From UHGV virus genome UHGV-0300571: a stretch of DNA of 13,936 nt. One strand, written 5' to 3'. Made by a program: the position numbers and the translations under genes. Positions within the stretch are counted from its first letter, which is position 1. Every line of letters begins with the position of its first letter. The notes beneath the pieces were generated by a model. The model was not told where the DNA came from and ran no database searches. It saw only the letters and a list, made by a program, of their open reading frames with translations. Below, piece after piece: positions 7,478 to 7,903 of the stretch. This stretch comes from a virus.

Positions 7478-7903
7478 TTAAAACGGTATCCCGTCCCCGT
7501 ACGGATCATCGTGCTGGCCTGTCTGTTGTTTTGCCCTGTTCAGTGCGTCAGTAGCCTGGCCCTGCTGGCCTTTTTTGCCGCCCGGTCGCGCCGTTCGCGC
7601 ACTGATTACACTGTCTGCGATAACCTGCCAGCCCTGCCGCGTTTCGCCGTTCTGGCCTGTCCACTGGCTCACCTGCATGTTACCCGCCACGCTCACGAGT
7701 TCGCCTTTGTGGTGCTTTGCCAGTGCGTCGGCCTGTCTGCCAAACGCCATGACGGATAACCACATCGTCGCCGTTCCGTCATCTGCCTGGCTGCACGGCA
7801 GGGGAACCGCCATACTCGCCATCGCCATTTGTGTCCCTTTGCTGGTGGTCTTTAACTGCGGGTCAGCCACCAGCCGCCCGTAAGCCGCTATCTGTGCTGT
7901 CAT
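7478..7903 (-). CDS. ssb: Single-stranded DNA-binding protein (SSB-like, OB fold)
   Basis: 141 aa. OB-fold-like N-terminal region, Gly/Gln-rich linker and a C-terminal acidic tip ...DDPYGDGIPF, which resembles the SSB C-terminal D-I-P-F tail. ATG at 7901-7903 with GGAGAGG upstream; ATGA overlap with the upstream gene. Confidence 0.75.
   Translation of the reverse strand: MTAQIAAYGRLVADPQLKTTSKGTQMAMASMAVPLPCSQADDGTATMWLSVMAFGRQADALAKHHKGELVSVAGNMQVSQWTGQNGETRQGWQVIADSVISARTARPGGKKGQQGQATDALNRAKQQTGQHDDPYGDGIPF

Follow-up and report, generated by a model that had tools for sequence, protein, structure and literature searches.

Phage satellites are usually seen as minimal borrowers, yet islands in a third of complete Escherichia coli genomes keep their own SSB (single-stranded DNA-binding protein). 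What does such a protein do for its carrier? Here we address this question for the ssb gene of UHGV-0300571, a stretch of 13,936 nucleotides (hereafter the window), which is a capsid-forming phage-inducible chromosomal island (cf-PICI), a phage satellite of E. coli. Family models and a structural prediction agree that the gene product is almost certainly a bacterial-type SSB. In the reading that we favor as the probable one, this protein coats single-stranded DNA (ssDNA) in island replication, and its C-terminal tip engages the SSB partners of the host.

The coding sequence of ssb lies at 7478–7903 on the minus strand and encodes 141 residues (stop included in the coordinates), ending at a TAA stop codon (7478–7480). 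The whole product reads MTAQIAAYGRLVADPQLKTTSKGTQMAMASMAVPLPCSQADDGTATMWLSVMAFGRQADALAKHHKGELVSVAGNMQVSQWTGQNGETRQGWQVIADSVISARTARPGGKKGQQGQATDALNRAKQQTGQHDDPYGDGIPF; it begins with MTAQIAAYGRL, its C-terminal stretch is QHDDPYGDGIPF, and its last ten residues are DDPYGDGIPF. An earlier note on this DNA had described an oligonucleotide/oligosaccharide-binding (OB)-fold protein at these positions with this C-terminus, and both the coordinates and the quoted residues are exact. A Shine-Dalgarno sequence, GGAGAGG (7911–7917, minus strand; read from the sequence), is located inside the 3′ end of the upstream gene orf93, and the ATG (7903–7901) follows 7 nt past it. Because the MTAQI N-terminus shows no variation across 31 homologues, this start codon is supported by both ribosome-binding signal and conservation. 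The gene is ordinary and correctly read, with family-model scores that exclude a chance open reading frame (ORF). Its start overlaps the stop of orf93 as ATGA, and the longest perC ORF starts 3 nt downstream of the ssb stop. This overlap, the good Shine-Dalgarno sequence and the lack of a terminator-like site on the gene strand between orf93 and perC argue for an orf93–ssb operon, and the two genes are probably co-transcribed. A promoter and terminator scan of 6600–8450 returned chance-level hits, which say nothing either way on internal signals.

A hidden Markov model search against the SSB family, proposed in the earlier note as a check, returned scores above the curated cut-offs for both Pfam PF00436 (60.2 bits, E = 2.3e-16, residues 5–99; gathering cut-off 26) and NCBIfam TIGR00621 (62.1 bits; cut-off 53.95). 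Among PHROG families, the protein matched phrog_44 (SSB; E = 1.3e-39), and SSBs accounted for 27 of 28 matches in a PDB sequence search, the weakest being a catalase (E = 0.0046). An AlphaFold2 model, calculated from an alignment of 31 homologues, displays residues 1–103 (7595–7903, minus strand) as an OB-fold ssDNA-binding domain with block-mean predicted local distance difference test (pLDDT) values of 78–93, in which the strand order and a helix at residues 55–62 are of the SSB type. All 50 best Foldseek matches in the PDB were bacterial SSB OB domains (target-normalised TM-score 0.65–0.82, E down to 1.5e-9), including Staphylococcus aureus SsbA and SsbB, Bacillus subtilis SsbA and E. coli SSB (1EQQ), and the OB fold named in the earlier note is thereby borne out. 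The E. coli SSB sequence used for comparison is identical to PDB 1EQQ chain A; it shares 26% identity with the island protein across the OB fold. Three of its four ssDNA-contacting aromatics, W54, F60 and W88, align with W48, F54 and W81 of the island SSB. The fourth, W40, falls in a gapped loop and has no aromatic counterpart, and H55, the residue altered in the temperature-sensitive ssb-1 mutant, aligns with Leu49. We infer that the island protein binds ssDNA; its oligomeric state, for which the bacterial SSB family would suggest a homotetramer, is likewise a matter of prediction.

C-terminal to the fold, a disordered Gly/Gln/Lys-rich linker spans residues 104–133 (7505–7594, minus strand), delineated by pLDDT and by homologue indels. 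It opens with the clade motif SARTARPGG, and the pLDDT stays below 50 from residue 104 to the C-terminus. Tip and linker conservation was followed in 31 homologues of 75–97% identity, among which the linker varies by a 13-residue deletion and by insertions of at most 9 residues. Its length of ~30 residues is above the minimum of 11–20 residues given for SSB linkers (PMC10164576). The tip, P-Y-G-D-G-I-P-F, occupies residues 134–141 (7481–7504, minus strand); D137, P140 and F141 are unchanged in all 31 homologues, and I139 is kept in at least 90%. Aligned from the end, the host C-terminus M-D-F-D-D-D-I-P-F and the island C-terminus D-P-Y-G-D-G-I-P-F have in common Phe at position 0, Pro at −1, Ile at −2, Asp at −4 and an aromatic residue at −6. 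The likeness to the host tip that the earlier note had pointed out therefore holds, in a less acidic version.

Is this likeness a coincidence? Counted over the 120 closest database clusters, DDPYGDNIPF (47), DDPYGDGIPF (19) and DDPYEDEIPF (8) are the most frequent endings. A HMMER pass over 1.84 billion representatives retrieved 7303 relatives at E ≤ 0.001, and tips were counted in the 115 full-length sequences among the best 149 of them. A terminal Phe is present in 65 of these 115 and an [ILVM]-P-F ending in 35, compared with ~2.5e-4 per C-terminus expected by chance from residue frequencies. Distant relatives (35–60% identity) share the tip consensus P-F-D-D-x-[I/L]-P-F, and 56 of the 57 motif-bearing ones have Asp at −4. 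Together, the frequency of the [ILVM]-P-F ending and this consensus indicate that the hook is an ancestral, selected feature of the clade and no coincidence. In partner proteins, the terminal Phe of the SSB C-terminus enters a hydrophobic pocket, its carboxylate meets a basic lip and the Asp residues meet a basic ridge, and SSB variants lacking the Phe or carrying a Pro-to-Ser change (P176S) are crippled in partner binding (PMC10164576). As the Phe, Pro, Ile, Asp −4 and aromatic −6 are all kept, the island hook is expected to fit the pockets of host partners, which it would then bind.

The gene is under purifying selection. Pairwise Nei-Gojobori dN/dS values are 0.08, 0.14 and 0.18 against copies L001, L005 and L002, respectively, the only three copies without saturated synonymous sites. 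Among the 105 closest full-length homologues (≥71% identity), conservation did not separate OB fold, linker and tip, whose mean identities are 0.86, 0.88 and 0.80. More distant homologues occur in other Enterobacterales genera at 52–67% identity, with one 43% match in a Fulvimarina metagenome-assembled genome. Truncated and fused ssb copies are present in databases, as would be expected of a decaying or non-functional passenger gene, but the dN/dS of 0.08–0.18, the intactness of most copies, the invariant N-terminus and tip, and the retention of the gene across genera make that explanation exceedingly improbable.

The clade is widespread. Of 5426 complete E. coli genomes, 1804 carry ssb homologues, some at as many as 6 places; chromosomes account for 2344 of the 2346 places. 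In IMG/VR we recovered 429 matching stretches, mostly on contigs of PICI size. The island SSB is a known family, already annotated, in a known satellite class and with an earlier mention in the literature: the label assigned to the E. coli copies by the Prokaryotic Genome Annotation Pipeline (PGAP) and the name of the database clusters are both 'single-stranded DNA-binding protein', and 'Primase, SSB and DUF5906' have been assigned to replication in a classification of Gram-negative PICI genes (Mageeney et al. 2023, PMC10111431), while the cf-PICI papers make no mention of ssb. A phage origin of the gene was considered and rejected, as 50,697 phage records yielded no relative above 60% identity and the best matches in them are Staphylococcus and Streptococcus phage SSBs of ~29% identity. 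A plasmid origin was rejected as well: tblastn against 72,556 plasmid records placed the island SSB clade in only 44, and the one examined is a cf-PICI amid chromosomal genes.

An SSB clade that is common in satellites, with no relative above 60% identity among 50,697 phage records, could also be a weapon. The island SSB would then act mainly as a competitor that coats ssDNA or, by means of its tip, titrates host SSB partners, drawing them away from the helper phage or the host chromosome and lowering the yield of the helper phage. Its tip retains the residues that bind partner pockets, and perturbation of host ssDNA metabolism has been proposed for a phage SSB-like protein whose tip reads FDDDIPF (10.64898/2026.04.29.721553). 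Against this, ssb belongs to the replication module by the origin, not to accessory or interference genes, and its product has no match to PADLOC defence models. Moreover, a lambdoid helper phage would itself depend on the SSB of the host, so that an additional working SSB would do such a helper as much good as harm. We therefore regard interference as unlikely, and competition with host or helper SSB networks, which the earlier note had also raised, as a possibility that is so far unsupported.

A still less likely role is establishment or anti-defence, in which the SSB would shield island DNA on entry or after excision, damp the SOS response or serve as a decoy for immunity that senses foreign SSBs. 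The precedent comes from plasmid leading regions, which carry SSB homologues alongside anti-defence genes (PMC11541004, PMC9849209), and from DRT10, which is triggered by a phage SSB-like protein (10.64898/2026.04.29.721553). Because cf-PICI DNA presumably arrives double-stranded from a capsid, there would be no ssDNA entry step to protect. The SSB and nine neighboring proteins lack PADLOC matches, and ssb adjoins the replicase and origin rather than the end of the element.

The position of ssb is informative in its own right. In the window, the island replicase (8353–9768, minus strand) combines a TOPRIM-like N-terminal domain (residues ~1–135) with a RepA-type AAA_25 helicase (residues 153–320). 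It is followed by a 216-bp iteron array (8140–8355) that spans the gap between the replicase gene and orf93 and reaches into the end of the former and the start of the latter, and ssb starts ~240 nt downstream of the array. Exact TCCCCACT sites number 8 in the window, all within 8162–8350, compared with 0.34 expected, and 0 of 200 shuffles reached 8. They form two clusters on either side of an AT-rich spacer, the usual look of an iteron origin, and the array is probably the origin of replication of the island, judging by sequence features. The support of island replication that the earlier note had proposed for the SSB fits this fixed place beside the replicase and probable origin.

The same arrangement recurs in other E. 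coli islands, where the replicase is followed by ssb, usually with a small ORF between them and perC after. The replicase–ssb order is found in a RepA-type island of O157:H7 with capsid, decoration protein and TerS genes, in TOPRIM/DUF927 and P4-type primase islands without capsid genes, and in a cf-PICI with a DUF5906 replicase (L023). In a tandem island (L024), a 'DNA primase family protein' is encoded upstream of ssb, without perC. The large ORF upstream of ssb is a primase/helicase in all of the annotated E. coli loci L001–L004, L023 and L024. Beyond E. coli, it carries primase/helicase domains in every one of the 14 loci scanned, which come from Leclercia, Buttiauxella, Pantoea, Rosenbergiella, Rahnella, Yokenella and E. 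albertii (Toprim_3 in 12, DUF927 in 11, Zn_Ribbon_Prim in 11 and DUF5906 in 3), with an integrase homologue upstream on the same strand in nearly all loci of other Enterobacterales. Among the best 80 of the 429 IMG/VR stretches, the SSB is 94–99% identical to the query, and 77 have a large upstream ORF, with a helicase domain in 76 of these 77 (D5_N/DUF5906 in 30, DUF927 in 28 and AAA_25 in 18). The pairing with three helicase types shows the ssb cassette to be an exchangeable, generic component of PICI replication modules that belongs to no single helicase or origin, and near-identical SSBs beside all three argue for a generic, host-like set of partners over one replicase-specific partner.

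The same neighborhoods contain the evidence for a self-directed tip, a hook that would mainly bind the replicase of the island itself, perhaps through the TOPRIM-like N-terminal domain, much as the tail of T7 gp2.5 binds T7 replication proteins; its resemblance to the host tip would be ancestral rather than functional. Tips of the form [YFW]-[GSE]-D-x-[IV]-P-F accompany replicases with an MKLAPN...TEVIIFAGSDAW N-terminal domain, an association seen for all 77 aligned IMG/VR replicases and in the Yokenella locus L022, whereas SSBs ending in P-F-D-D-E-x-P-F sit beside Zn-ribbon/Toprim_3 or P4-type primases. This correlation comes from few independent lineages and may reflect shared descent. Furthermore, the helicase domains next to near-identical SSBs are of three unrelated types, and the tip motif is common to thousands of SSBs without such a replicase. 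A mainly self-directed tip is thus doubtful, about on a par with interference. Equally tentative is the idea of a dedicated satellite SSB, not a spare one, from a clade restricted to satellites, whose host-type but less acidic tip either captures partners from the host replisome and repair machinery for the island origin at the expense of the helper or has co-evolved with the TOPRIM-like domain of the replicase; if true, the choice of SSB would be a determinant of satellite–helper competition.

The favored reading, in which the island SSB coats ssDNA and recruits host partners, can be laid out as follows. After island induction, ssb would probably share a transcript with orf93, which follows the replicase and the iteron origin. 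In this setting the OB fold would cover the ssDNA exposed by the island helicase at the origin and during fork progression, adding SSB capacity while the cell is also replicating a helper phage. The flexible linker would display the C-terminal hook, Y-G-D-G-I-P-F, to host partners such as the Pol III χ subunit, DnaG, PriA and exonuclease I, and island forks would thereby be served by the host replisome. Island replication presumably benefits from the gene.

Several points weigh against this reading. With Gly instead of the host Asp at −5 and −3, the island tip is less acidic, and its affinity for the basic ridge of the partners could be lower. Oligomeric state and binding mode are not assured, since H55 is replaced by Leu49 and W40 lacks a counterpart. 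Deletion of the F-plasmid SSB, which is closely analogous, had no significant effect on conjugation efficiency (PMC9849209), and the island SSB may be dispensable as well. Finally, a literature search found no experimental work on a PICI- or satellite-encoded SSB.

Between the replicase and ssb, orf93 (phrog_1231; 7900–8181, minus strand) encodes a small protein that could be an SSB or replication accessory factor. Most annotated E. coli islands, and 55 of the 80 IMG/VR loci, have it directly upstream of ssb. Pfam searches at E up to 10 with the replicase N-terminus, orf93 and orf95 gave nothing credible. Recognition of the GTGGGGA iterons by the replicase N-terminal domain was considered and rejected: the iterons are limited to some loci with RepA-size replicases (<480 residues) and never occur in loci with D5/DUF5906-size or DUF927-size replicases. 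Two database proteins of 233 residues, P0283 and P0285, match the replicase N-terminal domain and also carry the SSB Pfam domain PF00436; from their sequences, they look like islands with in-frame loss of the helicase domain and origin.

Two of the E. coli loci deserve separate description. L024 (NZ_CP024815.1, E. coli CREC-629, 3761350–3779772) consists of tandem PICI copies adjoining clpA, with repeated capsid, decoration and TerS blocks, some of them frameshifted, in a genome with 6 ssb matches. L023 (CP088587.1) is a 32.5-kb 'plasmid', pD17EC0246-3, in which chromosomal pntAB, mdtJI and asr flank a complete cf-PICI with DUF5906 replicase, orf, ssb, perC and the genes from capsid to TerL; this 'plasmid' is probably a misassembly or an excised chromosomal segment.

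The remainder of the 13.9-kb window bears out the satellite assignment of the earlier note. Described cf-PICIs measure ~10–18 kb and possess an integrase, regulation and replication modules and their own packaging genes, without lysis genes or a complete tail module, and rely on a helper phage for induction and transfer (10.1101/2025.02.11.637232). The window has this size and contains int, AlpA, PerC and replicase genes, and neither its ORFs nor the annotated copy L001 include tail or lysis genes. The gene order along the coding strand is integrase, AlpA, small ORFs with DUF4222, replicase, repeat array, orf93 and ssb, followed by PerC, orf95 and the packaging genes from capsid to TerL. The tyrosine integrase (12523–13773, minus strand) was recognized by Pfam Phage_integrase and Arm-DNA-bind_3, and the AlpA-family regulator (11964–12152, minus strand) by Phage_AlpA (E = 2.7e-18); the small ORFs and DUF4222 occupy 9765–10064 on the gene strand. 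The PerC-family regulator (7181–7474, minus strand; Pfam PerC, E = 3e-35), also annotated as the neighbor of ssb in L001–L004 and L023, may be an activator of the capsid operon. Of the PICI types examined, many, though not all, have PerC immediately downstream of ssb and just before the packaging genes. The packaging module (619–6612, minus strand) comprises capsid, S78 prohead protease, portal, head-tail connector, HNH, TerS and TerL genes, each with a Pfam match, that of the connector being marginal (20.1 bits; cut-off 21.2), and the PGAP names in L001 agree with these matches. An island with 95–100% identity and the same annotation resides between two yifB fragments in E. coli TUM9757. The longest ORF at 10727–11911 (minus strand; 394 residues) looks spurious; L001 has in this region an Icd-like gene and, on the opposite strand, a short divergent gene of the YlcI/YnfO family (compare 11094–11312, plus strand). 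The segment 10727–11911, with 11094–11312, is probably the regulatory switch region of the island.

Should island replication require this SSB, or should the protein bias host replisome factors toward the island, satellite–helper conflict would gain a further layer at the level of replication, and tip mutants would offer a simple genetic handle on that question.

Comparison with known systems places the island SSB among several precedents. Like E. coli chromosomal SSB (1EQQ), it has one N-terminal OB fold, a disordered linker and a tip ending in I-P-F. It is shorter, at 141 versus 178 residues, with a linker of ~30 versus ~60 residues that is basic rather than Gly/Gln/Pro-rich, and its tip has two fewer Asp residues (Y-G-D-G-I-P-F versus F-D-D-D-I-P-F). 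The E. coli gene stands at the chromosomal ssb locus, whereas the island gene is carried on a mobile island. The SSB of phage P1 is a phage-encoded SSB with a host-type tip. T7 gp2.5 is a dimeric OB-fold ssDNA-binding protein whose acidic, Phe-ending tail binds T7 polymerase and helicase-primase; it is alike in principle, without detectable sequence relationship, and its tail targets the phage's own proteins rather than host partners. The SSBs of Gram-negative PICIs agree with it in type of gene and type of element and colocalise with primase, DUF5906 and mapped origins, in a study that categorises the family without analysis of tip, fold or distribution (PMC10111431); the window adds a further instance. 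Bas52_0087 is another mobile-element SSB-like protein with the host C-terminal motif (FDDDIPF) and is thought to interface with host SSB partners (10.64898/2026.04.29.721553), but its model contains two OB folds and it triggers defence, whereas the island SSB has a single OB fold. F-plasmid SsbF is likewise a host-SSB homologue borne by a mobile element; it gives partial complementation of conditional mutations in chromosomal ssb and is located together with host Ssb at forks (PMC9849209). Plasmids express their SSBs early, from the leading region, once ssDNA has entered, whereas the island ssb sits beside the replicase and origin of an integrated satellite.
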